This document shows positions 6,583 to 60,655 of a DNA stretch of 64,000 bases, in pieces (the first letter of the stretch is position 1; each line of letters starts with the position of its first letter). Under the pieces are notes generated by a model. It saw only the letters and a list, made by a program, of their open reading frames with translations, ran no database searches and was not told the DNA's origin. The position numbers and the translations under genes were made by a program. The stretch spans positions 118,358,001 to 118,422,000 of the forward strand of contig OZ024744.1 of NCBI GenBank assembly GCA_964016885.1. Direction: 5' to 3'. This stretch comes from Eledone cirrhosa. Taxonomy: Eukaryota.

Positions 6583-6596
6583 ATATATATATATAT

Positions 6597-6775: not shown

Positions 6776-7076
6776 CACATTACAGTGGGGAGGGGGGCAT
6801 ACTGTACATATGCTTCAGCTTGGGCTTGTGGGAAGTCTCTCTCTCTCTCTCTCCCTCTCTCTCCAGCTGCGTTAGGAAATCGTCATTTCCTTTCCCATCT
6901 CCACCACATGCGGTATACATGCCTGACCCTGTATGCTAACCATTCCCTCGTGAATATAGCATAGAGCAGACATGGGATGGACAGAGGCTCCGTAAGTGGT
7001 AGTGTAGGCAACCTGTCTAGGAGAGCTACCACTCCGAATAAATTGGTGTGGGGTGGAGAAGTCCAGTAAGACAACC

Positions 7077-7432: not shown

Positions 7433-7869
7433 TATGTGTGTATATGATGTATGTGTGTATATATATATATATTTTTTTTTTTTCATGAATTAGTGTGTGA
7501 GAGCTATTTCTAGTGTTACCACTTGTCACATCCCATCAATCGTAATTTAATTGGCCTGAGCAATGGCTGGCCTCACATTCTTTGGGAACAAATATTTTTC
7601 TGGAATTACAAGATGTCTACTGATGAATGCTAGCTTTTGGCTTCACCATTTACCAATGTTGATCAACAGTAAATGTTCTGCATGAAATGGTACCATAAAG
7701 GTCTTGTAAAAACTTGGAGGCTATGTAAGTATAATACTTATTCTGTCTCTGTTTTTTTAGTCTGATTATATTGTCCTCTGCTAAATATTGGATATGTGGT
7801 TTCCTATGTTATTGGCAGTGTGAAACCACTGAGGTCTTGGATTTTTAACTCTAATTTTCTCATTGAGCA

Positions 7870-10740
7870 GCAAAGGTAAAATAAGGAACCATCAAAGAGG
7901 AAGGAAGTAACAAGTGAACAAATGTTGAAACAAAGAAGATTAGAATTAAGAGAAACAGAGACCTTGGAAAAAAGAGAGCCCAAATACTCTGTAAATTTTT
8001 CAAGAAAAGTGATCTGCTGACATGGAAAAGCAGAGGCAGGTTGCAGATTTGCTCATACCAGACCTCATGTGAGTTGCACACAACCAGTACATCCCAAATA
8101 CTCAAGCTAAAACTACCATGGACAGACAACACAGCAGATAGGGTCACTGCCCAGGAAATATGATGTTACACGTACTGCCCCGATGAAAAGAAGATATGTA
8201 GAAGCAGTACAGACAGTAGCTGCAGAGCAACAATCGTTTTTAGACATGGCAGAAAAGATAGTACAACAATTGATTTGGCTACATCAGATACAAAGTGATT
8301 CACACCAACATTCATGACCACTACAAAGAAACGCAGAGTGACCACCACCACTGACACTGAAATATGTTAGCAGCAGCCACTGCTAACAGCTCAAATATCA
8401 CACCAGTGCTACTGCTAAATGTGAGTGGCTAGGTAAAAGTTAGCAGCATGAGTACAATCTCCACAAGCATTCAAGCAATATGCATGTCACTAACTGAGAA
8501 GTAAGATGCAGAGGCAGAAATACACATAATGAAGTATGCTGTATTTCATCCTGACAGAAGAGAAAGAACTCTTTGTATGTCCATGAATATGTCACACCAT
8601 TAGTACTGTCACATTCCAACTCAGGCTGTGATACACTAATAGTACACATAAAGCAACTCAAAATGGTAATATGTCACATATCGATCACCAGACGCCTCTA
8701 GTTGTGAGGAAAAGTTTGAAGATGACCTCAGAAAGATTGAAGAAGTACTAACCAAACTGGATCAGAGTCTCAACATACTGCTGCTGGGAGATTTTAACTC
8801 CAAAAGGTCAAATGAGCTGAAGACCAGTGCCTCTCAGGAATGACAATACTTAAACCTTACAAAACGACTTTTCATGGAACAAAGGGCACTTCATCCAAGA
8901 GATGAGAAGACCTGAATCTCTGCTTCATAAATAACACGGGGCTCACCCACAATGTAAATATGAAACCAATGATTTTCTCGGAACATAGCATAGTAGAACT
9001 AGGAAGGTATAGTCTGAGGAAGACTGTAGATATACTACCGACAGGAAACACTTGGTCTATCAAACAAAACCTTCCACAGAACTAACTAGAAAAGGATTCA
9101 GGAAGAGCTCCCGAAGCAAAACTGGACAAACAGTTTCTCTATGGAAGATGTCCACATTAAACTTGAACAATTCATGGAAATAATATAAACTATATGCTCC
9201 AAGTTTACCCCAGAAAGAAAGGCCAACAGATACAAGAATAATATTCCCAAAGATAGAAAAATGCTTACGTGATAGAGAACAAAGATCTCAAACTGTCTAC
9301 ATATACAAGGAACAAGAAGGAATCCCATTTGAAGCAGGCACTGTTTGAAATTGCCAGTGAAATGAAACTTTCCCATGAAAAAGTTAGGACAGAAAGGAAA
9401 GCCAGAACTAAAGAAAACATAGAAATGAACCTAAGGTCTTCTTTAAATTTGCAAAAGGGACTGCCTCAGTACATTACAGGATGGGGCTAGTTTCCCATAA
9501 AAATGGCTCACTAACTGCAGACCCCTAAGGGATAAGTGAAGTACTGAATGGGCAATATAAAAGTGTTTCCACACCCCTAATGAGATACATACAAATAAGT
9601 AAACCAATTGAGTTCTTTAACACCACAGCACAACACAGAGAAACGGGAAATATCAACCACATAGATATAAAGGTGAAAGGTGCAATATCAGCCATAGACG
9701 AAATGAGACCAAATTCAGCAGCTGGCAGTGATGGTTTCCCAGCAAACTTCTTAAAATCATACAAATGAACATTAGCAAAACTACTGCAGATCATCTTCCA
9801 AAGTTCCTTTTCATGGGGTACAGTACTCAGAAAACTAAAAGATGGCATATGTCCTAAACATAAAAAAGGAAGTGGAACAGATGCTAAAAACTACCAACCT
9901 GTCTCCTTAACATATCAGCAAAGAAGAAATCTGATCACATACCTAAAGGAAATATAACCAACTAACTGACACCCAGCTTGACTTTTGTCTGGGTAGAGCT
10001 GCCTTACATAGTATTATGACTGGGTACTGAAACAATTGCTAAACTGTTCAAACATGGATGTAATATATTTCGACTTTGCAAAAGCCTTTGACAAGAATTG
10101 GTCATGGAATATGCTACAAACTTCGGAGTTTCAGCATAGCTGGAAAACTAGGTGAAAGGATTCATGATTTCTTAAAAGACAGAAGCCTGTTGCAGCCAGC
10201 AGGGTCCTCACAAAAGAAAGATCAATAACAATTAGTGTGCATCAGGGAACAGTCTTCTGTTTGTGGTGGGTCTCTGACATACCCTCCATAATATAGACAG
10301 TCTCCCTCACTTGATGATGAGCAGAAAGTAGCACAATCAAGAATCTGGTTGGTGCAACCCTCTTACAGGATTTTCATGCCATATACAAATGGACAATGCC
10401 AGAAAATCTCTATCAACCTGTAAACAAGGCCAATGCAACAAAACTACACCATACCAGGAGGTATAGAAATCAATAGAGGACCTGGGTTTTGACATGAGCA
10501 ATGATACATCACCAAACTGTGCAGATGATTGGCATGTTTCATTTTGAAGACTTTCAAGACAAGAAAGCAAGAGACCATGTTAGTTAACTGGACTATTGTC
10601 CTCAGCAGTGTTAAACTAACTGCAGAAATTTGTGTAAGCTACTCCAAGGAGATTGCCTCAATGAAGGAGATGAGATACTGAGAGAGGCTGACAGAAGCTC
10701 TACTGTCTGGAATGTGAGAGATATATACAGTGATATAGAT
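7870..10740 (+). pseudogene. Decayed CR1-group (CR1/L2-like) LINE: ORF1 Cys/His remnant, APE endonuclease and reverse transcriptase
   Basis: Motifs occur in the correct order across many frameshifts: LCKFFKK..HGKAEAGCRFAHT (~7988-8058), SNSGCDTLIVHIKQL..YRSPD (~8615-8695), NILLLGDFN (8772-8798), FSEHSIV (~8975), MRPNSAAGSDGFPANFLK (9703), KKGSGTDAKNYQPVSLT (~9861-9912), DVIYFDFAKAFDK (10058-10096), VHQGTV (~10236), DLGFDMSND (~10478), KTFKTRK (~10547), KEIASMKEMRY*ERLTE (10646-10696). Confidence 0.88.
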
Positions 10741-13700
10741 AAGGAGATGAGGTACTGAGAGAGGCTGACAGAAGCTCTACTGTCTGGAATGGGAGAGATA
10801 TATACAGTGATATAGATAAGGAGATGAGGTACTGAGAGAGGCTGACAGAAGCTCTACTGTCTGGAATGGGAGAGATATATACAGTGATATAGATAAGGAG
10901 ATGAGGTACTGAGAGAGGCTGACAGCAGCTCTACTGTCTGGAATGGGAGAGATATATACAGTGATATAGATAAGGAGATGAGGTACTGAGAGAGGCTGAC
11001 AGAAGCTCTACTGTCTGGAATGGGAGAGATATATACAGTGATATAGATAAGGAGATGAGGTACTGAGAAAGGTTGACAGAAGCTCTACTGTCTGGAATGG
11101 GAGAGATATATACAGTGATATAGATAAGGAGATGGGGTACTGAGAGAGGCTGACAGAAGCTCTACTGTCTGGAATGGGAGAGATATATACAGTGATATAG
11201 ATAAGGAGATGAGGTACTGAGAGAGGCTGACAGAAGTTCTACTGTCTGGAATGGGAGAGATATATACAGTGATATAGATAAGGAGATGAGGTACTGAGAG
11301 AGGCTGACAGAAGCCCTACTGTCTGGAATGGGAGAGATATATACAGTGATATAGATAAGTAGATGAGGTACTGAGAGAGGCTGACAGAAGCCCTACTGTC
11401 TGGAATGGGAGAGATATATACAGTGATATAGATAAGGAGATGAGGTACTGAGAGAGGCTGACAGAAGTGCTACTGACTGGAATGGGAGAGATATATACAG
11501 TGATATAGATAAGGAGATGAGGTACTGAGAGAGATTGACAGAAGCTCTACTGTCTGGAATGGGAGAGATATATACAGTGATATAGATAAGGAGATGAGGT
11601 ACTGAGCGAGGTTGACAGAAGTGCTACTGTCTGGAATGGGAGTGATATATACAGTGATATAGGTAAGGAGATGAGGTACTGAGAGAGGCTGACAGAAGCT
11701 CTACTGTCTGGAATGGGAGAGATATATACAGTGAAATAGATAAGGAGATGAGGTACTGAGAGAGGCTGACAGAAGTTCTACTATCTGGAATGGGAGAGAT
11801 ATATACAGTGATATAGATAAGGAGATGAGGTACTGAGAGAGGCTGACAGTAGCTCTACTGTCTGGAATGGGAGAGATATATACAGTGATATAGATAAGGA
11901 GATGAGGTACTGAGAGAGGCTGACAGAAGTTCTACTGTCTGGAATGGGAGAGATATATACAGTGATATAGATAAGATGAGGTACTGAGAGAAGCTGACAG
12001 AAGCTCTACAGTCTGGAATGGGAGAGATATATACAGTGATATAGATAAGGAGATGAAGTACTGAGAGAGGCTGACAGAAGCTCTACTGTCTGGAATGGGA
12101 GAGATATATACAGTGATATAGATAAGGAGATGAGGTACTGAGAAAGGTTGACAGAAGCTCTACTGTCTGGAATGGGAGAGATATATACAGTGATATAGAT
12201 AAGGAGATGGGGTACTGAGAGAGGCTGACAGAAGCTCTACTGTCTGGAATGGGAGAGATATATACAGTGATATAGATAAGGAGATGAGGTACTGAGAGAG
12301 GCTGACAGAAGTTCTACTGTCTGGAATGGGAGAGATATATACAGTGATATAGATAAGGAGATGAGGTACTGAGAGAGGCTGACAGAAGCCCTACTGTCTG
12401 GAATGGGAGAGATATATACAGTGATATAGATAAGTAGATGAGGTACTGAGAGAGGCTGACAGAAGCCCTACTGTCTGGAATGGGAGAGATATATACAGTG
12501 ATATAGATAAGGAGATGAGGTACTGAGAGAGGCTGACAGAAGTGCTACTGACTGGAATGGGAGAGATATATACAGTGATATAGATAAGGAGATGAGGTAC
12601 TGAGAGAGATTGACAGAAGCTCTACTGTCTGGAATGGGAGAGATATATACAGTGATATAGATAAGGAGATGAGGTACTGAGCGAGGTTGACAGAAGTGCT
12701 ACTGTCTGGAATGGGAGTGATATATACAGTGATATAGGTAAGGAGATGAGGTACTGAGAGAGGCTGACAGAAGCTCTACTGTCTGGAATGGGAGAGATAT
12801 ATACAGTGAAATAGATAAGGAGATGAGGTACTGAGAGAGGCTGACAGAAGTTCTACTATCTGGAATGGGAGAGATATATACAGTGATATAGATAAGGAGA
12901 TGAGGTACTGAGAGAGGCTGACAGTAGCTCTACTGTCTGGAATGGGAGAGATATATACAGTGATATAGATAAGGAGATGAGGTACTGAGAGAGGCTGACA
13001 GAAGTTCTACTGTCTGGAATGGGAGAGATATATACAGTGATATAGATAAGATGAGGTACTGAGAGAAGCTGACAGAAGCTCTACAGTCTGGAATGGGAGA
13101 GATATATACAGTGATATAGATAAGGAGATGAAGTACTGAGAGAGGCTGACAGAAGCTCTACTGTCTGGAATGGGAGAGATATATACAGTGATATAGATAA
13201 GGAGATGAGGTACTGAGAAAGGTTGACAGAAGCTCTACTGTCTGGAATGGGAGAGATATATACAGTGATATAGATAAGGAGATGAGGTACTGAGAGAGGC
13301 TGACAGAAGCTCTACTGTCTGGAATGGGAGAGATATATACAGTGATATAGATAAGGAGGTGAGGTACTGAGAGAGGCTGACAGAAGTGCTACTCTCTGGA
13401 ATGGGAGAGATATATACAGTGATATAGATAAGGAGATGAGGTACTGAGAGAGGTTGACAGAAGCTCTACTGTCTGGAATGGGAGAGATATATACAGTGAT
13501 ATAGATAAGGAGATGAGGTACTGAGAGAGGCTGACAGAAGTTCTACTGTCTGGAATGGGAGAGATATATACAGTGATATAGATAAGGAGATGAGGTACTG
13601 AGAGAGGCTGACAGAAGTTCTACTGTCTGGAATGGGAGAGATATATACAGTGATATAGATAAGATGAGGTACTGAGAGAAGCTGACAGAAGCTCTACTGT

Positions 13701-25700: not shown

Positions 25701-28700
25701 GAGATATATACAGTGATATAGATAAGGAGATGAGGTACTGAGAGAGGCTGACAGAAGCTCTACTGTCTGGAATGGGAGAGATATATACAGTGATATAGAT
25801 AAGGAGATGGAGTACTGAGAGAGGCTGACAGTAGCTCTACTGTCTGGAATGGGAGAGATATATACAGTGATATAGATAAGGAGATGAGGTACTGAGAGAG
25901 GCTGACAGAAGTGCAACTGTCTGGAATGGGAGAGATATATACAGTGATATAGATAAGGAGATGAGGTACTGAGAGAGGCTGACAGAAGCTCTTCTGTATG
26001 GAATGGGAGAGATATATACAGTGATATAGATAGGGAGATGGGGTACTGAGAGAGGCTGACAGAAGCTCTACTGTCTGGAATGGGAGAGATATATACAGAG
26101 ATATAGATAAGGAGATGGGGTACTGAGAGAGGCTGACAGTAGCTCTACTGTCTGGAATGGGAGAGATATATACAGTGATATAGATAAGGAGATGAGGTAC
26201 TGAGAGAGGCTGACAGAAGCTCTACTGTCTGGAATGGGAGAGATATATACAGTGATATAGATAAGGAGATGAGGTACTGAGAGAGGCTGACAGAAGCTCT
26301 ACTGTCTGGAATGGGAGAGATATATACAGTGATATAGATAAGGAGATGGGGTACTGAGAGAGGCTGACAGAAGCTCTACTGTCTGGAATGGGAGAGATAT
26401 ATACAGTGATATAGATAAGGAGATGGGGTACTGAGAGAGGCTGACAGTAGCTCTACTGTCTGGAATGGGAGAGATATATACAGTGATATAGATAAGGAAA
26501 TGTGGTACTGAGAGAGGTTGACAGAAGCTCTACTGTCTGGAATGGGAGAGATATATACAGTGATATAGATAAGGAGATGAGGTACTGAGAGAGGTTGACA
26601 GAAGCTCTACTGTCTGGAATGGGAGAGATATATACAGTGATATAGATAAGGAGATGAGGTACTGAGAGAGGCTGACAGAAGTTCTACTGTCTGGAATGGG
26701 AGAGATATATACAGTGATATAGATAAGGAGATGAGGTACTGAGAGAGGCTGACAGTAGCTCTACTGTCTGGAATGGGAGAGATATATACAGTGATATAGA
26801 TAAGGAGATGAGGTACTGAGAGAGGCTGACAGTAGCTCTACTGTCTGGAATGGGAGAGATATATACAGTGATATAGATAAGGAGATGAGGTACTGAGAGA
26901 GGCTGACAGAAGTTCTACTGTCTGGAATGGGAGAGATATATACAGTGATATAGATAAGATGAGGTACTGAGAGAAGCTGACAGAAGCTCTACTGTCTGGA
27001 ATGGGAGAGATATATACAGTGATATAGATAAGGAGATGGGGTACTGAGAGAGGCTGACAGTAGCTCTACTGTCTGGAATGGGAGAGATATATACAGTGAT
27101 ATAGATAAGGAGATGAGGTACTGAGAGAGGCTGACAGAAGCTCTTCTGTCTGGAATGGGAGAGATATATACAGTGATATAGATAAGGAGATGGGGTACTG
27201 AGAGAGGCTGACAGAAGCTCTACTGTCTGGAATGGGAGAGATATATACAGTGATATAGATAAGGAGATGGGGTACCGAGAGAGGCTGACAGTAGCTCTAC
27301 TGTCTGGAATGGGAGAGATATATACAGTGATATAGATAAGGAGATGAGGTACTGAGAGAGGCTGACAGAAGCTCTACTGTCTGGAATGGGAGAGATATAT
27401 ACAGTGATATAGATAAGGAGATGGGGTACTGAGTGAGGCTGACAGAAGCTCTACTGTCTGGAATGGGAGAGATATATACAGTGATATAGATAAGGAGATG
27501 AGGTACTGAGAGAGGCTGACAGAAGTTCTACTGTCTGGAATGGGAGAGATATATACAGTGATATAGATAAGATGAGGTACTGAGAGAAGCTGACAGAAGC
27601 TCTACTGTCTGGAATGGGAGAGATATATACAGTGATATAGATAAGGAGATGAGGTACTGAGAGAGGTTGACAGAAGCTCTATTGTCTGGAATGGGAGAGA
27701 TATATACAGTGATATAGATAAGGAGATGAGGTACTGAGAGAGGCTGACAGAAGTTCTACTGTCTGGAATGTGAGAGATATATACAGTGATATAGATAAGG
27801 AGATGAGGTACTGAGAGAGGCTGACAGAAGTTCTACTGTCTGGAATGGGAGAGATATATACAGTGATATAGATAAGGAGATGAGGTACTGAGAGAGGTTG
27901 ACAGTAGTTCTACTGTCTGGAATGGGAGAGATATATACAGTGATATAGATAAGGAGATGAGGTACTGAGAGAGGCTGACAGAAGTTCTACTGTCTGGAAT
28001 GGGAGAGATATATACAGTGATATAGATAAGGAGATGAGGTACTGAGAGAGGCTGACAGAAGCTCTACTGTCTGGAATGGGAGAGATATATACAGTGATAT
28101 AGATAAGGAGATGGGGTACTGAGAGAGGCTGACAGAAGCTCTACTGTCTGGAATGTGAGAGATATATACAGTGATATAGATAAGGAGATGAGGTACTGAG
28201 AGAGGCTGACAGAAGTTCTACTGTCTGGAATCGGAGAGATATATACAGTGATATAGATAAGGAGATGAGGTACTGAGAGAGGCTGACAGAAGCTCTTCTG
28301 TCTGGAATGGGAGAGCTATATACAGTGATATAGATAAGGAGATGAGGTACTGAGAGAGGCTGACAGAAGCTCTACTGTCTGGAATGGGAGAGATATATAC
28401 AGTGATATAGATAAGGAGATGAGGTACTGAGAGAGGCTGACAGAAGCTCTACTGTCTGGAATAGGAGAGATATATACAGTGATATAGATAAGGAGATGAG
28501 GTACTGAGAGAGGCTGACAGAAGCTCAACTGTCTGGAATGGGAGAGCTATATACAGTGATATAGATAAGGAGATGAGGTACTGAGAGAGGCTGACAGAAG
28601 CTCTACTGTCTGGAATGGGAGATATATATACAGTGATATAGATAAGGAGATGAGGTACTGAGAGAGGTTGACAGAAGTTCTACTCTCTGGAATGGGAGAG

Positions 28701-37700: not shown

Positions 37701-40700
37701 AGTGATATAGATAAGGAGATGAGGTACTGAGAGAGGCTGACAGAAGTTCTACTGTCTGGAATGGGAGAGATATATACAGTGATATAGATAAGGAGATGAG
37801 GTACTGAGAGAGGCTGACAGAAGCTCTTCTGTCTGGAATGGGAGAGCTATATACAGTGATATAGATAAGGAGATGAGGTACTGAGAGAGGCTGACAGAAG
37901 CTCTACTGTCTGGAATGGGAGAGATATATACAGTGATATAGATAAGGAGATGAGGTACTGAGAGAGGCTGACAGAAGCTCTACTGTCTGGAATGGGAGAG
38001 ATATATACAGTGATATAGATAAGGAGATGAGGTACTGAGAGAGGCTGACAGAAGCCCTACTGTCTGGAATGGGAGAGATATATACAGTGATATAGATAAG
38101 GAGATGAGGTACTGAGCGAGGTTGACAGAAGCCCTACTGTCTGGAATGGGAGAGATATATACAGTGATATAGATAAGATGAGGTACTGAGAGAGGCTGAC
38201 AGAAGTGCTACTGTCTGGAATGGGAGAGATATATACAGTGATATAGATAAGGAGATGAGGTACTGAGAGAGGCTGACAGAAGCTCTACTGTCTGGAATGG
38301 GAGAGATATATACAGTGATAGAGATAAGGAGATGAGGTACTGAGAGAGGCTGACAGAAGTTCTACTGTCTGGAATGGGAGAGATATATACAGTGATATAG
38401 ATAAGTAGATGAGGTACTGAGAGAGGCTGACAGAAGTGCTACTGTCTGGAATGGGAGAGATATATACAGTGATATAGATAAGGAGATGAGGTACTGAGAG
38501 AGGTTGACAGAAGCTCTACTGTCTGGAATGGGAGAGATATATACAGTGATATAGATAAGGAGATGAGGTACTTAGAGAAGCTGACAGAAGCTCTACTGTC
38601 TGGAATTGGAGAGAAATATAAAGTGATGTAGATAAGGAGATGAGGTACTGAGAGAGGCTGACAGAAGCTCTACTGTCTGGAATGGGAGAGAGATATACAG
38701 TGATATAGATAAGATGAGGTACTGAGAGAAGTTGACAGAAGCTCTACTGTCTGGAATGGGAGAGATATATACAGTGATATAGATAAGGAGATGAGGTACT
38801 GAGAGAGGCTGACAGAAGCTCTACTGTCTGGAATGGGAGAGATATATACAGTGATATAGATAAGGAGATGAGGTACTGAGAGAGGCTGACAGAAGCTCTA
38901 CTGTCTGGAATGGGAGAGAGATATACAGTGATATAGATAAGATGAGGTACTGAGAGAAGTTGACAGAAGTTCTACTGTCTGGAATGGAAGAGATATATAC
39001 AGTGATATAGATAAAGAGATGAGCTACTGAGAGAAGCTGACAGAAGCTCTACTGTCTGGAATGGGAGAGATATATACAGTGATATAGATAAGGAGATGAG
39101 GTACTGAGAGAGGCTGACAGAAGCTCTACTGTCTGGAATGGGAGAGATATATACAGTGATATAGATAAGGAGATGGGGTACTGAGAGAGGCTGACAGAAG
39201 CTCTACTGTCTGGAATGGGAGAGATATATACAGTGATATAGATAAGGAGATGGGGTACCGAGAGAGGCTGACAGTAGCTCTACTGTCTGGAATGGGAGAG
39301 ATATATACAGTGATATAGATAAGGAGATGAGGTACTGAGAGAGGCTGACAGAAGCTCTACTGTCTGGAATGGGAGAGATATATACAGTGATATAGATAAG
39401 GAGATGGGGTACTGAGTGAGGCTGACAGAAGCTCTACTGTCTGGAATGGGAGAGATATATACAGTGATATAGATAAGGAGATGAGGTACTGAGAGAGGCT
39501 GACAGAAGTTCTACTGTCTGGAATGGGAGAGATATATACAGTGATATAGATAAGATGAGGTACTGAGAGAAGCTGACAGAAGCTCTACTGTCTGGAATGG
39601 GAGAGATATATACAGTGATATAGATAAGGAGATGAGGTACTGAGAGAGGTTGACAGAAGCTCTATTGTCTGGAATGGGAGAGATATATACAGTGATATAG
39701 ATAAGGAGATGAGGTACTGAGAGAGGCTGACAGAAGTTCTACTGTCTGGAATGTGAGAGATATATACAGTGATATAGATAAGGAGATGAGGTACTGAGAG
39801 AGGCTGACAGAAGTTCTACTGTCTGGAATGGGAGAGATATATACAGTGATATAGATAAGGAGATGAGGTACTGAGAGAGGTTGACAGTAGTTCTACTGTC
39901 TGGAATGGGAGAGATATATACAGTGATATAGATAAGGAGATGAGGTACTGAGAGAGGCTGACAGAAGTTCTACTGTCTGGAATGGGAGAGATATATACAG
40001 TGATATAGATAAGGAGATGAGGTACTGAGAGAGGCTGACAGAAGCTCTACTGTCTGGAATGGGAGAGATATATACAGTGATATAGATAAGGAGATGGGGT
40101 ACTGAGAGAGGCTGACAGAAGCTCTACTGTCTGGAATGTGAGAGATATATACAGTGATATAGATAAGGAGATGAGGTACTGAGAGAGGCTGACAGAAGTT
40201 CTACTGTCTGGAATCGGAGAGATATATACAGTGATATAGATAAGGAGATGAGGTACTGAGAGAGGCTGACAGAAGCTCTTCTGTCTGGAATGGGAGAGCT
40301 ATATACAGTGATATAGATAAGGAGATGAGGTACTGAGAGAGGCTGACAGAAGCTCTACTGTCTGGAATGGGAGAGATATATACAGTGATATAGATAAGGA
40401 GATGAGGTACTGAGAGAGGCTGACAGAAGCTCTACTGTCTGGAATAGGAGAGATATATACAGTGATATAGATAAGGAGATGAGGTACTGAGAGAGGCTGA
40501 CAGAAGCTCAACTGTCTGGAATGGGAGAGCTATATACAGTGATATAGATAAGGAGATGAGGTACTGAGAGAGGCTGACAGAAGCTCTACTGTCTGGAATG
40601 GGAGATATATATACAGTGATATAGATAAGGAGATGAGGTACTGAGAGAGGTTGACAGAAGTTCTACTCTCTGGAATGGGAGAGATATATACAGTGATATA

Positions 40701-43700
40701 GATAAGGAGATGAGGTACTGAGAGAGGCTGACAGAAGCTCTACTGTCTGGAATGGGAGAGATATATACAGTGATATAGATAAGGAGATGAGGTACTGAGA
40801 GAGGTTGACAGAAGTTCTACTGTCTGGAATGGGAGAGATATATACAGTGATATAGATAAGGAGATGAGGTACTGAGAGAGGCTGACAGAAGCCCTACTGT
40901 CTGGAATGGGAGAGATATATACAGTGATATAGATAAGGAGATGAGGTACTGAGAGAGGCTGACAGAAGCTCTACTGTCTGGAATAGGAGAGATATATACA
41001 GTGATATAGATAAGGAGATGGGGTACTGAGAGAGGCTGACAGAAGTAAAACTGTCTGGAATGGGAGATATATACAGTGATATAGATAAGGAGATGGGGTA
41101 CTGAGAGAGGCTGACAGAAGTAAAACTGTCTGGAATGGGAAATATATACAGTGATATAGATAAGGAGATGGGGTACTGAGAGAGGCTGACAGAAGCTCTA
41201 CTGTCTGGAATGGGAGAGATATATACAGTGATATAGGTAAAGAGATGGGGTACTGGGAGAGGCTGACAGAAGTTCTACTGTCTGGAATGGGAGAGATATA
41301 TACAGTGATATAGATAAGGAGATGAGGTACTGAGAGAGGTTGACAGAAGCTCTACTGTCTGGAATGGGAGAGATATATACAGTGATATAGATAAGGAGAT
41401 GAGGTACTGAGAGAGGCTGACAGCAGCTCTACTGTCTGGAATGGGAGAGATATATACAGTGATATAGATAAGGAGATGAGGTACTGAGAGAGGCTGACAG
41501 AAGCTCTACTGTCTGGAATGGGAGAGATATATACAGTGATATAGATAAGGAGATGAGGTACTGAGAGAGGCTGACAGAAGCTCTTCTGTCTGGAATGGGA
41601 GAGCTATATACAGTGATATAGATAAGGAGATGAGGTACTGAGAGAGGCTGACAGAAGCTCTACTGTCTGGAATGGGAGAAATATATACAGTGATATAGAT
41701 AAGGAGATGAGGTACTGAGAGAGGCTGACAGAAGCTCAACTGTCTGGAATGGGAGAGCTATATACAGTGATATAGATAAGGAGATGAGGTACTGAGAGAG
41801 GCTGACAGAAGCTCTACTGTCTGGAATGGGAGAGATATATACAGTGATATAGATAAGGAGATGAGGTACTGAGAGAGGTTGACAGAAGTTCTACTGTCTG
41901 GAATGGGAGAGATATATACAGTGATATAGATAAGGAGATGAGGTACTGAGAGAGGCTGACAGAAGTTCTACTGTCTGGAATGGGAGAGATATATACAGTG
42001 ATATAGATAAGGAGATGAGGTACTGAGAGAGGCTGACAGAAGTTCTACTGTCTGGAATGGGAGAGATATATACAGTGATATAGATAAGGAGATGGGGTAC
42101 TGAGAGAGGCTGACAGAAGCTCTACTGTCTGGAATGTGAGAGATATATACAGTGATATAGATAAGGAGATGAGGTACTGAGAGAGGCTGACAGAAGTTCT
42201 ACTGTCTGGAATCGGAGAGATATATACAGTGATATAGATAAGGAGATGAGGTACTGAGAGAGGCTGACAGAAGCTCTTCTGTCTGGAATGGGAGAGATAT
42301 ATACAGTGATATAGATAAGGAGATGAGGTACTGAGAGAGGCTGACAGAAGCTCTACTGTCTGGAATGGGAGAGATATATACAGTGATATAGATAAGGAGA
42401 TGAGGTACTGAGAGAGGCTGACAGAAGCTCTACTGTCTGGAATAGGAGAGATATATACAGTGATATAGATAAGGAGATGAGGTACTGAGAGAGGCTGACA
42501 GAAGTTCTACTGTCTGGAATGGGAGAGATATATACAGTGATATAGATAAGGAGATGAGGTACTGAGAGAGGTTGACAGTAGTTCTACTGTCTGGAATGGG
42601 AGAGATATATACAGTGATATAGATAAGGAGATGAGGTACTGAGAGAGGCTGACAGAAGTTCTACTGTCTGGAATGGGAGAGATATATACAGTGATATAGA
42701 TAAGGAGATGAGGTACTGAGAGAGGCTGACAGAAGCTCTTCTGTCTGGAATGGGAGAGCTATATACAGTGATATAGATAAGGAGATGAGGTACTGAGAGA
42801 GGCTGACAGAAGCTCTACTGTCTGGAATGGGAGAGATATATACAGTGATATAGATAAGGAGATGAGGTACTGAGAGAGGCTGACAGAAGCTCTGCTGTCT
42901 GGAATAGGAGAGATATATACAGTGATATAGATAAGGAGATGAGGTACTGAGAGAGGCTGACAGAAGTTCTACTGTCTGGAATGGGAGAGATATATACAGT
43001 GATATAGATAAGGAGATGAGGTACTGAGAGAGGTTGACAGTAGTTCTACTGTCTGGAATGGGAGAGATATATACAGTGATATAGATAAGGAGATGAGGTA
43101 CTGAGAGAGGCTGACAGAAGTTCTACTGTCTGGAATGGGAGAGATATATACAGTGATATAGATAAGGAGATGAGGTACTGAGAGAGGCTGACAGAAGCTC
43201 TACTGTCTGGAATGGGAGAGATATATACAGTGATATAGATAAGGAGATGGGGTACTGAGAGAGGCTGACAGAAGCTCTACTGTCTGGAATGTGAGAGATA
43301 TATACAGTGATATAGATAAGGAGATGAGGTACTGAGAGAGGCTGACAGAAGTTCTACTGTCTGGAATCGGAGAGATATATACAGTGATATAGATAAGGAG
43401 ATGAGGTACTGAGAGAGGCTGACAGAAGCTCTTCTGTCTGGAATGGGAGAGCTATATACAGTGATATAGATAAGGAGATGAGGTACTGAGAGAGGCTGAC
43501 AGAAGCTCTACTGTCTGGAATGGGAGAGATATATACAGTGATATAGATAAGGAGATGAGGTACTGAGAGAGGCTGACAGAAGCTCTACTGTCTGGAATAG
43601 GAGAGATATATACAGTGATATAGATAAGGAGATGAGGTACTGAGAGAGGCTGACAGAAGCTCAACTGTCTGGAATGGGAGAGCTATATACAGTGATATAG

Positions 43701-46700
43701 ATAAGGAGATGAGGTACTGAGAGAGGCTGACAGAAGCTCTACTGTCTGGAATGGGAGATATATATACAGTGATATAGATAAGGAGATGAGGTACTGAGAG
43801 AGGTTGACAGAAATTCTACTCTCTGGAATGGGAGAGATATATACAGTGATATAGATAAGGAGATGAGGTACTGAGAGAGGCTGACAGAAGCTCTACTGTC
43901 TGGAATGGGAGAGATATATACAGTGATATAGATAAGGAGATGAGGTACTGAGAGAGGTTGACAGAAGTTCTACTGTCTGGAATGGGAGAGATATATACAG
44001 TGATATAGATAAGGAGATGAGGTACTGAGAGAGGCTGACAGAAGCCCTACTGTCTGGAATGGGAGAGATATATACAGTGATATAGATAAGGAGATGAGGT
44101 ACTGAGAGAGGCTGACAGAAGCTCTACTGTCTGGAATAGGAGAGATATATACAGTGATATAGATAAGGAGATGGGGTACTGAGAGAGGCTGACAGAAGTA
44201 AAACTGTCTGGAATGGGAGATATATACAGTGATATAGATAAGGAGATGGGGTACTGAGAGAGGCTGACAGAAGTAAAACTGTCTGGAATGGGAAATATAT
44301 ACAGTGATATAGATAAGGAGATGGGGTACTGAGAGAGGCTGACAGAAGCTCTACTGTCTGGAATGGGAGAGATATATACAGTGATATAGGTAAAGAGATG
44401 GGGTACTGGGAGAGGCTGACAGAAGTTCTACTGTCTGGAATGGGAGAGATATATACAGTGATATAGATAAGGAGATGAGGTACTGAGAGAGGTTGACAGA
44501 AGCTCTACTGTCTGGAATGGGAGAGATATATACAGTGATATAGATAAGGAGATGAGGTACTGAGAGAGGCTGACAGCAGCTCTACTGTCTGGAATGGGAG
44601 AGATATATACAGTGATATAGATAAGGAGATGAGGTACTGAGAGAGGCTGACAGAAGCTCTACTGTCTGGAATGGGAGAGATATATACAGTGATATAGATA
44701 AGGAGATGAGGTACTGAGAGAGGCTGACAGAAGCTCTTCTGTCTGGAATGGGAGAGCTATATACAGTGATATAGATAAGGAGATGAGGTACTGAGAGAGG
44801 CTGACAGAAGCTCTACTGTCTGGAATGGGAGAAATATATACAGTGATATAGATAAGGAGATGAGGTACTGAGAGAGGCTGACAGAAGCTCAACTGTCTGG
44901 AATGGGAGAGCTATATACAGTGATATAGATAAGGAGATGAGGTACTGAGAGAGGCTGACAGAAGCTCTACTGTCTGGAATGGGAGAGATATATACAGTGA
45001 TATAGATAAGGAGATGAGGTACTGAGAGAGGTTGACAGAAGTTCTACTGTCTGGAATGGGAGAGATATATACAGTGATATAGATAAGGAGATGAGGTACT
45101 GAGAGAGGCTGACAGAAGTTCTACTGTCTGGAATGGGAGAGATATATACAGTGATATAGATAAGGAGATGAGGTACTGAGAGAGGCTGACAGAAGTTCTA
45201 CTGTCTGGAATGGGAGAGATATATACAGTGATATAGATAAGAAGATGAGGTACTGAGAGAGGTTGACAGTAGTTCTACTGTCTGGAATGGGAGAGATATA
45301 TACAGTGATATAGATAAGGAGATGAGGTACTGAGAGAGGCTGACAGAAGTTCTACTGTCTGGAATGGGAGAGATATATACAGTGATATAGATAAGGAGAT
45401 GAGGTACTGAGAGAGGCTGACAGAAGCTCTACTGTCTGGAATGGGAGAGATATATACAGTGATATAGATAAGGAGATGGGGTACTGAGAGAGGCTGACAG
45501 AAGCTCTACTGTCTGGAATGTGAGAGATATATACAGTGATATAGATAAGGAGATGAGGTACTGAGAGAGGCTGACAGAAGTTCTACTGTCTGGAATCGGA
45601 GAGATATATACAGTGATATAGATAAGGAGATGAGGTACTGAGAGAGGCTGACAGAAGCTCTTCTGTCTGGAATGGGAGAGCTATATACAGTGATATAGAT
45701 AAGGAGATGAGGTACTGAGAGAGGCTGACAGAAGCTCTACTGTCTGGAATGGGAGAGATATATACAGTGATATAGATAAGGAGATGAGGTACTGAGAGAG
45801 GCTGACAGAAGCTCTACTGTCTGGAATAGGAGAGATATATACAGTGATATAGATAAGGAGATGAGGTACTGAGAGAGGCTGACAGAAGCTCAACTGTCTG
45901 GAATGGGAGAGCTATATACAGTGATATAGATAAGGAGATGAGGTACTGAGAGAGGCTGACAGAAGCTCTACTGTCTGGAATGGGAGAGATATATACAGTG
46001 ATATAGATAAGGAGATGAGGTACTGAGAGAGGTTGACAGAAGTTCTACTGTCTGGAATGGGAGAGATATATACAGTGATATAGATAAGGAGATGAGGTAC
46101 TGAGAGAGGCTGACAGAAGCTCTACTGTCTGGAATGGGAGAGATATATACAGTGATATAGATAAGGAGATGAGGTACTGAGAGAGGTTGACAGAAGTTCT
46201 ACTGTCTGGAATGGGAGAGATATATACAGTGATATAGATAAGGAGATGAGGTACTGAGAGAGGCTGACAGAAGCCCTACTGTCTGGAATGGGAGAGATAT
46301 ATACAGTGATATAGATAAGGAGATGAGGTACTGAGAGAGGCTGACAGAAGCTCTACTGTCTGGAATGGGAGAGATATATACAGTGATATAGATAAGGAGA
46401 TGGGGTACTGAGAGAGGCTGACAGAAGTAAAACTGTCTGGAATGGGAGATATATACAGTGATATAGATAAGGAGATGGGGTACTGAGAGAGGCTGAGAGA
46501 AGTAAAACTGTCTGGAATGGGAGATATATACAGTGATATAGATAAGGAGATGGGGTACTGAGAGAGGCTGACAGAAGCTCTACTGTCTGGAATGGGAGAG
46601 ATATATACAGTGATATAGGTAAAGAGATGGGGTACTGGGAGAGGCTGACAGAACTTCTACTGTCTGGAATGGGAGAGATATATACAGTGATATAGATAAG

Positions 46701-49700
46701 GAGATGAGGTGCTGAGAGAGGTTGACAGAAGCTCTACTGTCTGGAATGGGAGAGATATATACAGTGATATAGATAAGGAGATGAGGTACTGAGAGAGGCT
46801 GACAGCAGCTCTACTGTCTGGAATGGGAGAGATATATACAGTGATATAGATAAGGAGATGAGGTACTGAGAGATGCTGACAGAAGCTCTACTGTCTGGAA
46901 TGGGAGAGATATATACAGTGATATAGATAAGGAGATGAGGTACTGAGAGAGGCTGACAGAAGCTCTACTGTCTGGAATGGGAGAGCTATATACAGTGATA
47001 TAGATAAGGAGATGGGGTATTGAGAGAGGCTGACAGAAGCTCTACTGTCTGGAATGGGAGAGATATATACAGTGATATAGATAAGATGAGGTACTGAGAG
47101 AGGCTGACAGAAGTTCTACTGTCTGGAATGGGAGAGATATATACAGTGATATAGATAAGGAGATGAGGTACTGAGAGAGGCTGACAGAAGCTCTACTGTC
47201 TGGAATGGGAGAGATATATACAGTGATATAGATAAGGAGATGAGGTACTGAGAGAGGCTGACAGAAGCTCTACTGTCTGGAATGGGAGAGATATATACAG
47301 TGATATAGATAAGGAGATGAGGTACTGAGAGAGGCTGACAGAAGTTCTACTGTCTGGAATCGGAGAGATATATACAGTGATATAGATAAGGAGATGAGGT
47401 ACTGAGAGAGGCTGACAGAAGCTCTTCTGTCTGGAATGGGAGAGCTATATACAGTGATATAGATAAGGAGATGAGGTACTGAGAGAGGCTGACAGAAGCT
47501 CTACTGTCTGGAATGGGAGAAATATATACAGTGATATAGATAAGGAGATGAGGTACTGAGAGAGGCTGACAGAAGCTCAACTGTCTGGAATGGGAAAGCT
47601 ATATACAGTGATATAGATAAGGAGATGAGGTACTGAGAGAGGCTGACAGAAGCTCTACTGTCTGGAATGGGAGAGATATATACAGTGATATAGATAAGGA
47701 GATGAGGTACTGAGAGAGGTTGACAGAAGTTCTACTGTCTGGAATGGGAGAGATATATACAGTGATATAGATAAGGAGATGAGGTACTGAGAGAGGCTGA
47801 CAGAAGCTCTACTGTCTGGAATGGGAGAAATATATACAGTGATATAGATAAGGAGATGAGGTACTGAGAGAGGCTGACAGAAGCTCAACTGTCTGGAATG
47901 GGAGAGCTATATACAGTGATATAGATAAGGAGATGAGGTACTGAGAGAGGCTGACAGAAGCTCAACTGTCTGGAATGGGAGAGATATATACAGTGATATA
48001 GATAAGGAGATGAGGTACTGAGAGAGGTTGACAGAAGTTCTACTGTCTGGAATGGGAGAGATATATACAGTGATATAGATAAGGAGATGAGGTACTGAGA
48101 GAGGCTGACAGAAGCTCTACTGTCTGGAATGGGAGAGATATATACAGTGATATAGATAAGGGGATGGGGTACTGAGAGAGGTTGACAGAAGTTCTACTGT
48201 CTGGAATGGGAGAGATATATACAGTGATATAGATAAGGAGATGAGGTACTGAGAGAGGCTGACAGAAGCCCTACTGTCTGGAATGGGAGAGATATATACA
48301 GTGATATAGATAAGGAGATGAGGTACTGAGAGAGGCTGACAGAAGCCCTACTGTCTGGAATGGGAGAGATATATACAGTGATATAGATAAGGAGATGAGG
48401 TACTGAGAGAGGCTGACAGAAGCCCTACTGTCTGGAATGGGAGAGATATATACAGTGATATAGATAAGGAGATGAGGTACTGAGAGAGGCTGACAGAAGC
48501 TCTACTGTCTGGAATGGGAGAGATATATACAGTGATATAGATAAGGAGATGAGGTACTGAGAGAGGCTGACAGAAGCTCTACTGTCTGGAATGGGAGAGA
48601 TATATACAGTGATATAGATAAGGAGATGAGGTACTGAGAGAGGCTGACAGAAGCTCTCCTGTCTGGAATGGGAGAGATATATACAGTGATATAGATAAGG
48701 AGATGAGGTACTGAGAGAAGCTGACAGAAGCTCTACTGTCTGGAATGGGAGAGATATATACAGTGATATAGATAAGGAGATGAGGTACTGAGAGAGGCTG
48801 ACAGAAGCTCTACTGTCTGGAATGGGAGAGATATATACAGTGATATAGATAAGGAGATGAGGTACTGAGAGAGGCTGACAGAAGCCCTACTGTCTGGAAT
48901 GGGAGAGATATATACAGTGATATAGATAAGGAGATGGGGTACTGAGAGAGGTTGACAGTAGCTCTACTGTCTGGAATGGGAGAGATATATACAGTGATAT
49001 AGATAAGGAGATGAGGTACTGAGAGAGGTTGACAGAAGTTCTACTGTCTGGAATGGGAGAGATATATACAGTGATATAGATAAGGAGATGGGGTAGTGAG
49101 AGAGGCTGACAGAAGCCCTACTGTCTGGAATGGGAGAGATATATACAGTGATATAGATAAGGAGATGAGGTACTGAGAGAGGTTGACAGAAGCTCTACTG
49201 TCTGGAATGGGAGAGATATATACAGTGATATAGATAAGGAGATGAGGTACTGAGAGAGGCTGACAGAAGCTCTACTGTCTGGAATGGGAGAGATATATAC
49301 AGTGATATAGATAAGGAGATGAGGTACTGAGAGAGGCTGACAGAAGCTCTACTGTCTGGAATGGGAGAGATATATACAGTGATATAGATAAGGAGATGAG
49401 GTACTGAGAGAGGTTGACAGAAGCTCTTCTGTCTGGAATGGGAGAGATATATACAGTGATATAGATAAGGAGATGGGGTACTGAGAGAGGCTGACAGAAG
49501 CTCTACTGTCTGGAATGGGAGAGATATATAGTGATATAGATAAGGAGATGAGGTACTGAGAGAGGCTGACAGAAGCTCTACTGTCTGGAATGGGATAGAT
49601 ATATACAGTGATATAGATAAGGAGATGAGGTACTGAGAGAGGCTGACAGAAGTTCTACTGTCTGGAATGGGAGAGATATATACAGTGATATAGATAAGGA

Positions 49701-52700
49701 GATGAGGTACTGAGAGAGGCTGACAGAAGTTCTACTGTCTGGAATGGGAGAGATATATACAGTGATATAGATAAGGAGATGAGGTACTGAGAGAGGCTGA
49801 CAGAAGCTCTTCTGTCTGGAATGGGAGAGCTATATACAGTGATATAGATAAGGAGATGAGGTACTGAGAGAGGCTGACAGAAGCTCTACTGTCTGGAATG
49901 GGAGAGATATATACAGTGATATAGATAAGGAGATGAGGTACTGAGAGAGGCTGACAGAAGCTCTACTGTCTGGAATGGGAGAGATATATACAGTGATATA
50001 GATAAGGAGATGAGGTACTGAGAGAGGCTGACAGAAGCCCTACTGTCTGGAATGGGAGAGATATATACAGTGATATAGATAAGGAGATGAGGTACTGAGC
50101 GAGGTTGACAGAAGCCCTACTGTCTGGAATGGGAGAGATATATACAGTGATATAGATAAGATGAGGTACTGAGAGAGGCTGACAGAAGTGCTACTGTCTG
50201 GAATGGGAGAGATATATACAGTGATATAGATAAGGAGATGAGGTACTGAGAGAGGCTGACAGAAGCTCTACTGTCTGGAATGGGAGAGATATATACAGTG
50301 ATAGAGATAAGGAGATGAGGTACTGAGAGAGGCTGACAGAAGTTCTACTGTCTGGAATGGGAGAGATATATACAGTGATATAGATAAGTAGATGAGGTAC
50401 TGAGAGAGGCTGACAGAAGTGCTACTGTCTGGAATGGGAGAGATATATACAGTGATATAGATAAGGAGATGAGGTACTGAGAGAGGTTGACAGAAGCTCT
50501 ACTGTCTGGAATGGGAGAGATATATACAGTGATATAGATAAGGAGATGAGGTACTTAGAGAAGCTGACAGAAGCTCTACTGTCTGGAATTGGAGAGAAAT
50601 ATAAAGTGATGTAGATAAGGAGATGAGGTACTGAGAGAGGCTGACAGAAGCTCTACTGTCTGGAATGGGAGAGAGATATACAGTGATATAGATAAGATGA
50701 GGTACTGAGAGAAGTTGACAGAAGCTCTACTGTCTGGAATGGGAGAGATATATACAGTGATATAGATAAGGAGATGAGGTACTGAGAGAGGCTGACAGAA
50801 GCTCTACTGTCTGGAATGGGAGAGATATATACAGTGATATAGATAAGGAGATGAGGTACTGAGAGAGGCTGACAGAAGCTCTACTGTCTGGAATGGGAGA
50901 GAGATATACAGTGATATAGATAAGATGAGGTACTGAGAGAAGTTGACAGAAGTTCTACTGTCTGGAATGGAAGAGATATATACAGTGATATAGATAAAGA
51001 GATGAGCTACTGAGAGAAGCTGACAGAAGCTCTACTGTCTGGAATGGGAGAGATATATACAGTGATATAGATAAGGAGATGAGGTACTGAGAGAGGCTGA
51101 CAGAAGCTCTACTGTCTGGAATGGGAGAGCTATATACAGTGATATAGATAAAGAGATGAGGTACTGAGAGAGGTTGACAGCAGCTCTACTGTCTGGAATG
51201 GGAGAGCTATATACAGTGATATAGATAAGGAGATGAGGTACTGAGAGAGGCTGACAGAAGTGCAACTGTCTGGAATGGGAGAGATATATACAGTGATATA
51301 GATAAGGAGATGAGGTACTGAGAGAGGCTGACAGAAGTGCAACTGTCTGGAATGGGAGAGATATATACAGTGATATAGATAAGGAGATGAGGTACTGAGA
51401 GAGGCTGACATAAGTGCAACTGTCTGGAATGGGAGAGATATATACAGTGATATAAATAAGGAGATGAGGTACTGAGAGAGGCTGACAGAAGCTCTACTGT
51501 CTGGAATGGGAGAGATATATACAGTGATATAGATAAGGAGATGAGGTACTGAGAGAGGCTGACAGAAGCTCTACTGTCTGGAATGGGAGAGCTATATACA
51601 GTGATATAGATAAGGAGATGAGGTACTGAGAGAAGCTGACAGAAGCTCTACTGTCTGGAATGGGAGAGATATATACAGTGATATAGATAAGGAGATGAGG
51701 TACTGAGAGAGGCTGACAGAAGCTCTACTGTCTGGAATGGGAGAGATATTTACAGTGATATAGATAAGGAGATGAGGTACTGAGAGAGGCTGACAGAAGC
51801 TCTACTGTCTGGAATGTGAGAGATATATACAGTGATATAGATAAGGAGATGAGGTACTGAGAGAGGCTGACAGAAGCTCTACTGTCTGGAATGTGAGAGA
51901 TATATACAGTGATATAGATAAGGAGATGAGGTACTGAGAGAGGCTGACAGAAGCTCTACTGTCTGGAATGGGAGAGATATATACAGTGATATAGATAAAG
52001 AGATGAGGTACTGAGAGAGGCTGACAGAAGCTCTACTGTCTGGAATGTGAGAGATATATACAGTGATATAGATAAGGAGATGAGGTACTGAGAGAGGCTG
52101 ACAGAAGCTCTACTGTCTGGAATGGGAGAGATATATACAGTGATATAGATAAAGAGATGAGGTACTGAGAGAGGCTGACAGAAGCTCTACTGTCTGGAAT
52201 GGGAGAGATATATGCAGTGATATAGATAAGGAGATGAGGTACTGAGAGAGGCTGACAGAAGCTCTACTGTCTGGAATGGGAGAGATATATACAGTGATAT
52301 AGATAAGGAGATGAGGTACTGAGAGAGGCTGACAGAAGCTCTACTGTCTGGAATGGGAGAGATATATACAGTGATATAGATAAGGAGATGAAGTACTGAG
52401 AGAGGTTGACAGAAGCTGTACTGTCTGGAATGGGAGAGATATATACAGTGATATAGATAAGGAGATGAGGTACTGAGAGAGGCTGACAGAAGCTCTACTG
52501 TCTGGAATGGGAGAGATATATACAGTGATATAGATAAAGAGATGAGGTACTGAGAGAGGCTGACAGAAGCTCTACTGTCTGGAATGGGAGAGATATATAC
52601 AGTGATATAGATAAGGAGATGAGGTACTGAGAGAGGCTGACAGAAGCTCTACTGTCTGGAATGGGAGAGATATATAGTGATATAGATAAGGAGATGAGGT

Positions 52701-58700: not shown

Positions 58701-60126
58701 GACAGAAGTTCTACTGTCTGGAATGGGAGAGATATATACAGTGATAGAGATAAGGAGATGAGGTACTGAGAGAGGCTGACAGAAGTTCTACTGTCTGGAA
58801 TGGGAGAGATATATACAGTGATATAGATAAGGAGATGAGGGACTGAGAGAGGCTGACAGAAGCTCTACTGTCTGGAATGGGAGAGATATATACAGTGATA
58901 TAGATAAGTAGATGAGGTACTGAGAGAGGCTGACAGAAGTGCTACTGACTGGAATGGGAGAGATATATACAGTGATATAGATAAGGAGATGAGGTACTGA
59001 GAGAAGCTGACAGAAGCTCTACTGTCTGGAATTGGAGAGATATATACAGTGATATAGATAAGGAGATGAGGTACTGAGAGAGGCTGACAGAAGCTCTACT
59101 GTCTGGAATGGGAGAGATATATACAGTGATATAGATAAGGAGATGAGGTACTGAGAGAGGCTGACAGAAGCTCTACTGTCTGGAATGGGAGAGAGATATA
59201 CAGTGATAGAGATAAGGAGATGAGGTACTGAGAGAAGCTGACAGAAGCTCTACTGTCTGGAATGGGAGAGATATATACAGTGATATAGATAAGGAGATGG
59301 GGTACTGAGAGAGGCTGACAGAAGCTCTACTGTCTGGAATGGGAGAGATATATACAGTGATATAGATAAGGAGATGAGGTACTGAGAGAGGCTGACAGAA
59401 GCTCTACTGTCTGGAATGGGAGAGATATATACAGTGATATAGATAAGTAGATGAGGTACTGAGAAAGGCTGACAGAAGCTCTTCTGTCTGGAATGGGAGA
59501 GATATATACAGTGATATAGATAAGGAGATGGGGTACTGAGAGAGGCTGACAGAAGCTCTACTGTCTGGAATGGGAGAGATATATACAGTGATATAGATAA
59601 GGAGATGGGGTACTGAGAGAGGCTGACAGAAGCTCTACTGTCTGGAATGGGAGAGATATATACAGTGATATAGATAAGATGAGGTACTGAGAGAAGCTGA
59701 CAGAAGCTCTACTGTCTGGAATGGGAGAGATATATACAGTGATATAGATAAGGAGATGAGGTACTGAGAGAGGTTGACAGAAGCCCTACTGTCTGGAATG
59801 GGAGAGATATATACAGTGATATAGATAAGGAGATGAGGTACTGAGAGAGGCTGACAGAAGCACTACTGTCTGGAATGGGAGAGATATATACAGTGATATA
59901 GATAAGGAGATGAGGTACTGAGAGAGGCTGACAGAAGCTCTACTGTCTGGAATGGGAGAGATATATACAGTGATATAGATAAGGAGATGAGGTACTGAGA
60001 GAGGTTGACAGAAGCTCTACTGTCTGGAATGGGAGAGATATATACAGTGATATAGATAAGGAGATGAGGTACTGAGAGAGGCTGACAGAAGTTCAACTCC
60101 TTAATGGGAGAGATTTATACAGTGAT
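10664..60126 (+). repeat. Satellite/macro-VNTR array of a 77-bp monomer, about 640 head-to-tail copies; consensus aaggagatgaggtactgagagaggctgacagaagctctactgtctggaatgggagagatatatacagtgatatagat
   Basis: Period is 77 (10664 to 10741 and onward). No inversions or foreign insertions were seen by eye. Most copies differ from consensus by 0-3 changes, with occasional 2-3 bp deletions. Consensus composition A27 G25 C8 T17, no CpG. Confidence 0.99.
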
Positions 60127-60345
60127 TGATATACATGAGGAAGATACTAGGACTAACACCAAACTTTGCCATTGAGAGCTGGACCAATCTTCAAACAGGA
60201 CACCACAGTATAGTGCCAAAAGTCCCCAGCTCTTTAATAAGCTAGGGGATCTACATGATGTGCATGTAGATATTTCCAAGAAACATCTCAACATTCTAGA
60301 ACGCATGGCATGAGACGAAGTATAAACAGCGACAGTCTCTCTTAC
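60098..60345 (+). pseudogene. Continuation (3' end of ORF2) of the same CR1-group LINE
   Basis: It reads IYMRKILGLTPNFAIESWTNLQTGHHSIVPK..PQLFNKLGDLHDVHVDISKKHLNI. This is the type of sequence that follows 'YWERL..L.LYSLERRRERY.IIY.WKI' in such ORF2 C-termini (..GP.LFN.LP..FK..LD). Confidence 0.7.
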
Positions 60346-60483
60346 ATAAAGTGCCAACTGTAGAAAAATGGCAGTGCTCCAGCAAGCCCTTAGTCAGTTG
60401 GCTGGAACACGCAAACGAGATACATCAATCCTTCCCTCTCTCCCTCCATGCGTCTGACTCTCGAGAGAGATACACTCAAATAT

Positions 60484-60655
60484 ATAGAGAGAGACAATCA
60501 GACAGATAGATACAATACAAATGTAGAGAGAGAGATATATAGATATATAGATACGATACACCAATGCACAGATAGATAGATACACCAATACACAGACAGA
60601 TAGATAGATATATAGATACAATACACCAATACACAGATAGACATATAGACAGATA
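60484..60655. repeat. Compound (GATA)n/caccaatacaca microsatellite, left part
   Basis: gatagatacaccaatacacagacagatag units, the same as at 63587-64000. Confidence 0.9.

Follow-up and report, generated by a model that had tools for sequence, protein, structure and literature searches.

Probable amplification in place of a 77-bp LINE segment into a long tandem array in Eledone cirrhosa

How does an array of several hundred tandem units begin? For long arrays that start from a single copy, the usual evidence is nothing more than the homology of the monomer. We analysed a 64,000-nucleotide window of the Eledone cirrhosa genome (118358001-118422000 of contig OZ024744.1, a contig of 136.5 Mb in the 3.0-Gb assembly GCA_964016885.1), where an array with a 77-bp unit, at about 118.4 Mb, lies among the remnants of a long interspersed nuclear element (LINE). 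The original prediction for this DNA was that 77 bp of the LINE's second open reading frame (ORF2) had been amplified about 640-fold at its own locus, with the parent element still on both sides. Our analysis, which rests on sequence comparison, leads to a similar view: with a probability of roughly 0.85, a 77-bp segment from the ORF2 end of one decayed LINE was amplified in place, likely by ordinary DNA-level slippage and unequal exchange, and serves no function.

The host LINE and its array

The array and its host take up the following parts of the window.

7955-10663, plus strand: 5' part of the host LINE, comprising an upstream remnant and endonuclease and reverse transcriptase remnants with many stops and deletions (blastn, tblastn)
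10664-60126, plus strand: tandem array of a 77-bp unit, 643.9 copies as assembled (Tandem Repeats Finder, unit anchors, alignments)
60127-60419, plus strand: 3' part of the host LINE, comprising the ORF2 end with two further deletions and then the 3' untranslated region (UTR) to a decayed tail (homology)

Tandem Repeats Finder (TRF) reported a single array in the window over 10664-60126, with a period of 77, 643.9 copies and 96% matches. It holds 644 unit anchors, whose spacing is exactly 77 bp in 517 of 643 cases and ranges from 73 to 79 overall. The unit comes from the ORF2 C-terminal region of a LINE family (..MKEMSYWERLKELKLYSLERRRERYAVIY.. in the family). Aligned to family copies it matches about 86 family bases minus two short deletions, at 69-77% identity.

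Searching the genome with the right flank yielded 674 candidates; 40 were scored, and 29 loci elsewhere were fetched. In 26 of these 29 copies the right-flank match has a match to the left junction or the first unit immediately upstream on its own strand; the three copies without such a match were L008, L024 and L025. Copy L007 illustrates the arrangement, with window 10636-10740 corresponding to its positions 1397-1510 and window 60127-60226 to 1501-1603. Longer natural copies align in order by blastn to window 7955-10696 and then to 60127-60419. On the unchanged natural ORF L049:4097-5554, tblastn places the left flank at amino acids 95-355 and the right flank at 370-407 and 421-458, and in the alignments the gap between them is occupied by the array unit. 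Because the flanks and unit are collinear with natural copies, the host is one LINE copy of about 3.1 kb split by the array. On these alignments both flanks come from one element, in which they adjoin and have the same orientation.

The expectation of a parent LINE on either side of the array was thus borne out, with flanks and unit mapping to consecutive positions of natural copies; flanks from different families or from non-adjacent positions, or a unit that could not be aligned, would have spoken against it, and none of these was seen. The predicted limits needed adjustment. The host had been given as 7870-60345, whereas homology starts at 7955 or 7958 and runs on past 60345 to about 60419. 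Of the range 10664-60345 under which the array had been described, the array itself takes up 10664-60126 and the LINE right flank the rest. The translations quoted for the monomers are present in the sequence, and the proposed ORF2 origin of the monomer stands, with the correction that the 77 bp are what two deletions left of about 86 family bases.

Sequencing runs bear on the joints to different degrees. The left junction is supported without a single difference by a contig from run X1 (9696-10705), and a 107-bp unit contig with depths of 1270, 783 and 776 in X1, X2 and X3 backs the 77-bp tandem joint. The restriction-site-associated DNA (RAD) runs, which as reduced-representation libraries carry no weight here, gave 0 reads on 10698-10741 in X4-X6 and 0 on 59990-60460 in X5.

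Pfam recognises an endonuclease (PF14529/PF03372) and a reverse transcriptase (PF00078) in natural copies of the family, and the same endonuclease-then-reverse-transcriptase order of a LINE ORF2 is present as remnants in the window. Two of the six natural-copy pieces scanned, both upstream, had no Pfam match. The upstream frame of the family (L047:6052-6924, L048:2004-2771) is without a Pfam match; in L047 it runs in frame into the endonuclease. The window's right flank extends to a 3' UTR that matches the family's natural 3' ends, copies L041 and L047 matching from 60364 or 60370 to 60419. Of the 19 family 3' ends displayed, most close with an 8-bp unit, GTAAAAGA, present one to three times; poly(A) ends are absent from all of them. 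A short tandem 3' tail in place of poly(A) is a mark of the CR1 clade, though not exclusive to it. The anatomy of the host LINE is consistent with the CR1 group, which we give as a putative label.

The element was already decayed when its segment was amplified, as had been proposed. Its 5' part is 64-69% identical to natural copies L045, L047, L048 and L049 by blastn and has 1-11 stops per tblastn segment. Over window 9400-10400, 147 of 946 columns (15.5%) are substituted relative to the commonest letter of the 18 closest aligned relatives, which themselves differ by 7.6-17%, and the host has 12 deletion runs in this interval. The two deletions of the unit are common to the first, internal and last copies of the array, and occur together in none of the 33 family copies that hold the full segment (58 loci examined). 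The units, by comparison, differ by 1.9% from the commonest unit, with a mean pairwise difference of 3.4% among 487 non-redundant units.

Genome-wide mapping of the monomer, which had been proposed as a check, found the array alone. A unit-specific 16-mer had 467 exact genome matches, 463 of them in the array; the four elsewhere compare with five matches of a control. Searching the genome with a unit dimer revealed no second array, and besides the array only six single matches at 74-77%. A 14-base family motif matched exactly 2,264 times in the genome, against 701 for a reversed-pattern control, and was found twice at a spacing of 70-96 bp nowhere in the genome (control 7), although exact matching misses decayed copies. 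One unit-equivalent is present in each of 33 aligned family copies. Together, the motif, 16-mer and dimer searches indicate, within the limits of exact matching, that the repeat is neither native to the family nor present at other loci. Other arrays of the unit, or independent duplications of the family segment, were also considered as candidates, and none appeared in the exact-match and dimer searches.

From a first duplication to nested blocks

Two features at the ends of the array suggest how it started.

10661-10671, plus strand: left member of an imperfect 11-bp direct repeat with core AGGA, 9 of 11 positions identical to 60135-60145
60061-60136, plus strand: divergent last copy (alignment), which shares both deletions and has private changes

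The array begins and ends in this imperfect direct repeat, and the exact AGGA core lies at the unit junction. Over 106,313 trial breakpoints in the host left flank, microhomology of at least 4 occurred in 2.4% and a 9/11 window in 0.7%. The left member of the repeat is the likely seed of the first duplication. Some human arrays derived from transposable elements are flanked by direct repeats of 5-20 bp, for which the Haber-Louis model has been proposed, and the repeat at the ends of the present array fits this flanking-direct-repeat model as it is summarised in PMC3389668.

The last copy differs from the commonest unit by about six substitutions and three indels. At unit positions 39 and 72 it retains the letter of the family, the commonest unit being derived at both sites. 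All eight units that have the family letter at position 39 also have 32T, like the last copy. These units fall into few lineages, and could be leftovers of an early state or the outcome of exchange with the last copy. When the divergence of the last copy is split over two lineages and set against the 15.5% of the host, the first duplication would fall, very roughly, at one third of the element's age, an estimate with a wide margin as it is drawn from about six substitutions.

Within the array, 149 distinct units occur among 643, of which 119 are identical to the commonest, and variant units are interspersed along its length. Of 205 pairs of common variants, 50 occurred in all four combinations, which is what exchange within units would produce. 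Exact runs of at least five units numbered 41, against 0 in 30 shuffles, many of them doubled by a 12-kb duplicate within the array. With that duplicate removed, 255 of 487 units still lay in repeated triplets, compared with a mean of 11 (maximum 30) in 100 shuffles. The tandem blocks of 14 and 41 units match perfectly or almost perfectly (15/15 and 29/30 units), while an apparent 41-unit diagonal at units 507/548 matched in just 6 of 29 units. A fixed higher-order repeat was considered and rejected, there being modest peaks only, at lags of 14, 29, 41 and 43, which single block duplications explain.

The array has the length and homogeneity of classical satellite DNA (37-49 kb, mean pairwise difference 3.4%), whereas classical satellite DNA is found at several loci and this array at one only. 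Interspersed variants together with block duplications are the pattern of a variant-repeat minisatellite.

Put in sequence, the history would run as follows. A LINE with endonuclease and reverse transcriptase would have inserted and decayed, its segment losing two short stretches, as the alignment shows. A single tandem duplication would then have occurred between short imperfect direct repeats 77 bp apart; the junction is visible and the mechanism is our proposal. Unequal exchange or conversion, again proposed as mechanism, would have spread one unit type, shuffled the variants and left the right end copy behind. Finally, blocks of 14, 41 and lastly 156 units would have been duplicated in tandem; all are present as assembled, though the last of them may be an assembly error. 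After the initial insertion and decay, retrotransposition probably played no part.

Several points weigh against this history or limit what it can claim. Four-gamete pairs may also arise by recurrent mutation, and the microhomology test is post hoc. As no one-copy or low-copy allele was seen, the starting state is deduced from paralogues. For the large blocks, the sequence cannot tell unequal crossing-over, sister-chromatid exchange, break-induced replication and rolling-circle reinsertion apart. The right junction (60102-60133) is in no contig of X1-X3, although such a hole proves nothing, and these three runs are not independent because they come from one sample, possibly the assembly's own source.

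Array length and other explanations

The most serious alternative modifies the in-place origin rather than replacing it. It concerns the following pair.

27146-39146, plus strand: exact internal duplicate, first copy, units 216-370
39129-51129, plus strand: exact internal duplicate, second copy, units 372-526

The two copies show 0 differences over 12,001 bp, and the next-longest exact run in the array is 18 units. At the typical age of array sequence (33 private variants in 37,499 bp) about 21 differences would be predicted. If the duplicate is an assembly error, the real array has the same origin and measures about 37.5 kb (about 488 units). Read depth is in line with this. The commonest unit has a summed X1-X3 word depth of 2829. 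Divided by the number of times that its 31-mers occur on average in the assembly, this amounts to 7.9 per copy if the full array is counted and 10.3 if the duplicate is removed; the word depths of the flanks are 12.8 (left) and 8.6 (right), with a mean of 10.7. Depth thus corresponds to roughly 390-590 units and leans towards a shorter array or a shorter second allele. On the other side, depth per run is only 2-7x and no reliable guide to copy number, the left-flank depths of X2 and X3 came from subtraction, and a shorter second allele would give the same signal. Recent block duplication is moreover a real process in this array, since the other exact tandem blocks exist. We therefore regard the duplicate as either a very recent block duplication or a misassembly, at even odds. 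Of the predicted 640-fold amplification, the count of 644 assembled units is confirmed, with the proviso that 156 of them are an exact duplicate of the preceding block whose reality is uncertain. There are hundreds of unit copies in the array whichever reading of the duplicate holds. In practice the assembled array calls for caution, as about one quarter of its length may have been falsely duplicated.

A bolder and rather doubtful extension would have the duplicate real and only a few generations old, as part of a genome-wide runaway doubling of multi-kb blocks in which arbitrary 30-80-bp pieces of dead retroposons grow into single-locus arrays of tens of kb. Were it true, this would be a satellite caught while growing, its parent, seed repeat, left-behind last copy and nested blocks still readable, and, with the other arrays on the contig, rates of satellite birth and growth could be measured directly across individuals.

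The unit might instead have been amplified elsewhere, in another array or in an extrachromosomal circle derived from this locus, and recombined back into a homologous LINE copy. Rolling-circle reinsertion could yield long exact blocks and is compatible with the sequence for the expansion phase. We nevertheless consider this very improbable: no donor array was found in the genome searches, both end copies carry the array's private deletions in register with the host, and the interspersed variants and nested blocks are unlike a single concatemer.

Slightly less credible again is that selection has kept the array, as a centromere-like or heterochromatin-organising block, or that a hairpin in the unit has driven its growth. 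The size of 37-49 kb could suggest such a role, and the unit has a 5-bp inverted repeat whose central pair is derived on both sides. Yet the folding energy of the unit is no better than that of shuffles (z -0.12, -0.24), no fixed higher-order period dominates, each of the three sense frames has 5-6 stops per three units, Rfam matches number 0 in window 6000-11200, and arrays of unrelated units lie on the same contig. No function of the array is indicated by its sequence. A hairpin or template-switch origin had been entertained separately, when the inverted repeat seemed to have been gained by three adjacent changes relative to distant family copies; it was dropped on finding that the closest subfamily copies already have most of these letters and that folding was no better than in shuffles. 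Of 92 distinct variant alleles, 14 fall in the hairpin loop, where about 9.6 would be expected.

That the array was made during or by retrotransposition, through template slippage of the reverse transcriptase or expansion of a repeat borne by the family as in Ogre-derived satellites, is the least probable explanation and largely refuted: the unit is sense-strand LINE sequence close to the 3' end, and element-borne repeats do occur in the same genome (a 56-bp unit) and in plants (PMC7004042), but the shared deletions of the array copies co-occur in none of 33 family copies, the units are 1.9% from the commonest while the host has decayed by 15.5%, and the tandem is absent from every other copy with the exact family motif.

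Related systems and neighbouring repeats

Amplification in place after decay, the reading we prefer, gives an array of an already established kind, since in-place arrays from retroposon pieces with the parent attached have been described. The closest are the squamate sSat arrays (PMC10702118). In sSat1-3, as here, an internal piece of a retroposon (67 nt in snake sSat3) is repeated in tandem with the parent at one or both array ends, and longer arrays are more uniform than the parent family. They differ in having a short interspersed nuclear element (SINE) as parent and, for the main types, many loci, whereas here the source is a LINE coding region and one locus was found. sSat arrays reach 320 and about 950-1000 units, and minor variants keep both SINE termini. 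The earlier judgement that a birth site at this scale is unusual was accordingly overstated, and is further weakened by other multi-kb arrays with 30-73-bp units on the same contig.

In the human genome, transposable elements have given rise to 7,276 minisatellites and satellites, which grow by local duplication (PMC3389668). They resemble the present array in their origin, in local expansion and, for some, in flanking direct repeats; most of 6,817 unexplained arrays there have two units only, whereas this one has hundreds. Among LINE-related satellites, the chicken HinfI repeat consists of CR1 3' UTR and partial ORF2, PROsat and Pvc20 of L1 ORF2, and the common cetacean satellite of the L1 3' end (PMC9659126). 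Here too the monomer is homologous to LINE ORF2 or 3' sequence, although the available part of that article deals with the homology of monomers rather than with a birth site that has host sequence at both junctions. In Lathyrus sativus, Ogre-derived satellites likewise lengthen inside a retrotransposon (PMC7004042), but their repeat is native to the 3' UTR of a long terminal repeat (LTR) element and present in many copies, whereas the array described here arose after decay in a single copy. OwlRep is also a single copy amplified in tandem to a very large array with its history traced (PMC5765563); it differs in deriving from HSAT6, in being traced through orthologues in related species and in being tied to a cellular role. 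CR1 is among the common LINE types of molluscs (PMC10294476).

A search of titles and abstract openings returned no two-sided LINE-ORF2 birth site of this size and no report of this array, which does not demonstrate absence; supplements of PMC10702118 and PMC3389668 may list such loci, and subscription journals were mostly uncovered. The locus is unusually clean, two-sided, derived from coding sequence and single, while its mechanism is not new and it is not unique in its genome. It is a good worked example rather than a new kind of system. Host junctions, candidate seed repeat, stranded end copy and nested blocks occur together in one 53-kb stretch, from which the succession of events can be read and then checked against the alleles of other individuals.

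Arrays of whatever origin were recorded at two further places on the contig. At 115506001-115576000 (L105-L111), 2.8 Mb from the window, there is a cluster of multi-kb arrays with 59-, 54- and 73-bp units. At 9104001-9194000 (L099-L104), 30-bp arrays surround a stop-free frame of 1,149 amino acids whose start recurs 61,284 bp further on.

Within the window, positions 560-1023 hold a 56-bp tandem of 4.8 copies within a dispersed repeat that is very abundant (3,125 candidates). Several further copies of that repeat have arrays of the 56-bp unit of their own, of varying length, and others match without extra units. At 1700-2234, a 93-bp tandem of 5 copies lies inside a young dispersed element (603 candidates), and copies 97-98% identical also show the start of the repeat; this is an element-borne repeat, unlike the main array. 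A 33-bp minisatellite of 13.1 copies (TRF, 97% matches) occupies 2749-3179. The stretch at about 3500-4200 resembles by eye what we take to be a decayed mariner-type transposase remnant with an internal duplication. To the right of the host, about 60650-63500 contains several 3' fragments of a different LINE, nested and in minus-strand orientation, with GATA-type microsatellites between them, and one stretch within it resembles by eye the long ORF of L100, L103 and L104.

TRF over the 66 fetched loci (282 kb) found only short duplications and a few arrays of at most 35 units. Further minisatellites lie beside copies of the host's LINE family at L050:190-2667 (74 bp, 7.9 copies, and 56 bp, 34.9 copies) and at L021:106-659 (43 bp, 12.9 copies). 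Two LINE-containing segments, L069 and L070 (C4:370110967 and 370119224), lie 8,257 bp from each other and have the same search score. Compared without gaps they agree at 3,933 of 4,040 positions, and the pair is likely a tandem segmental duplication.

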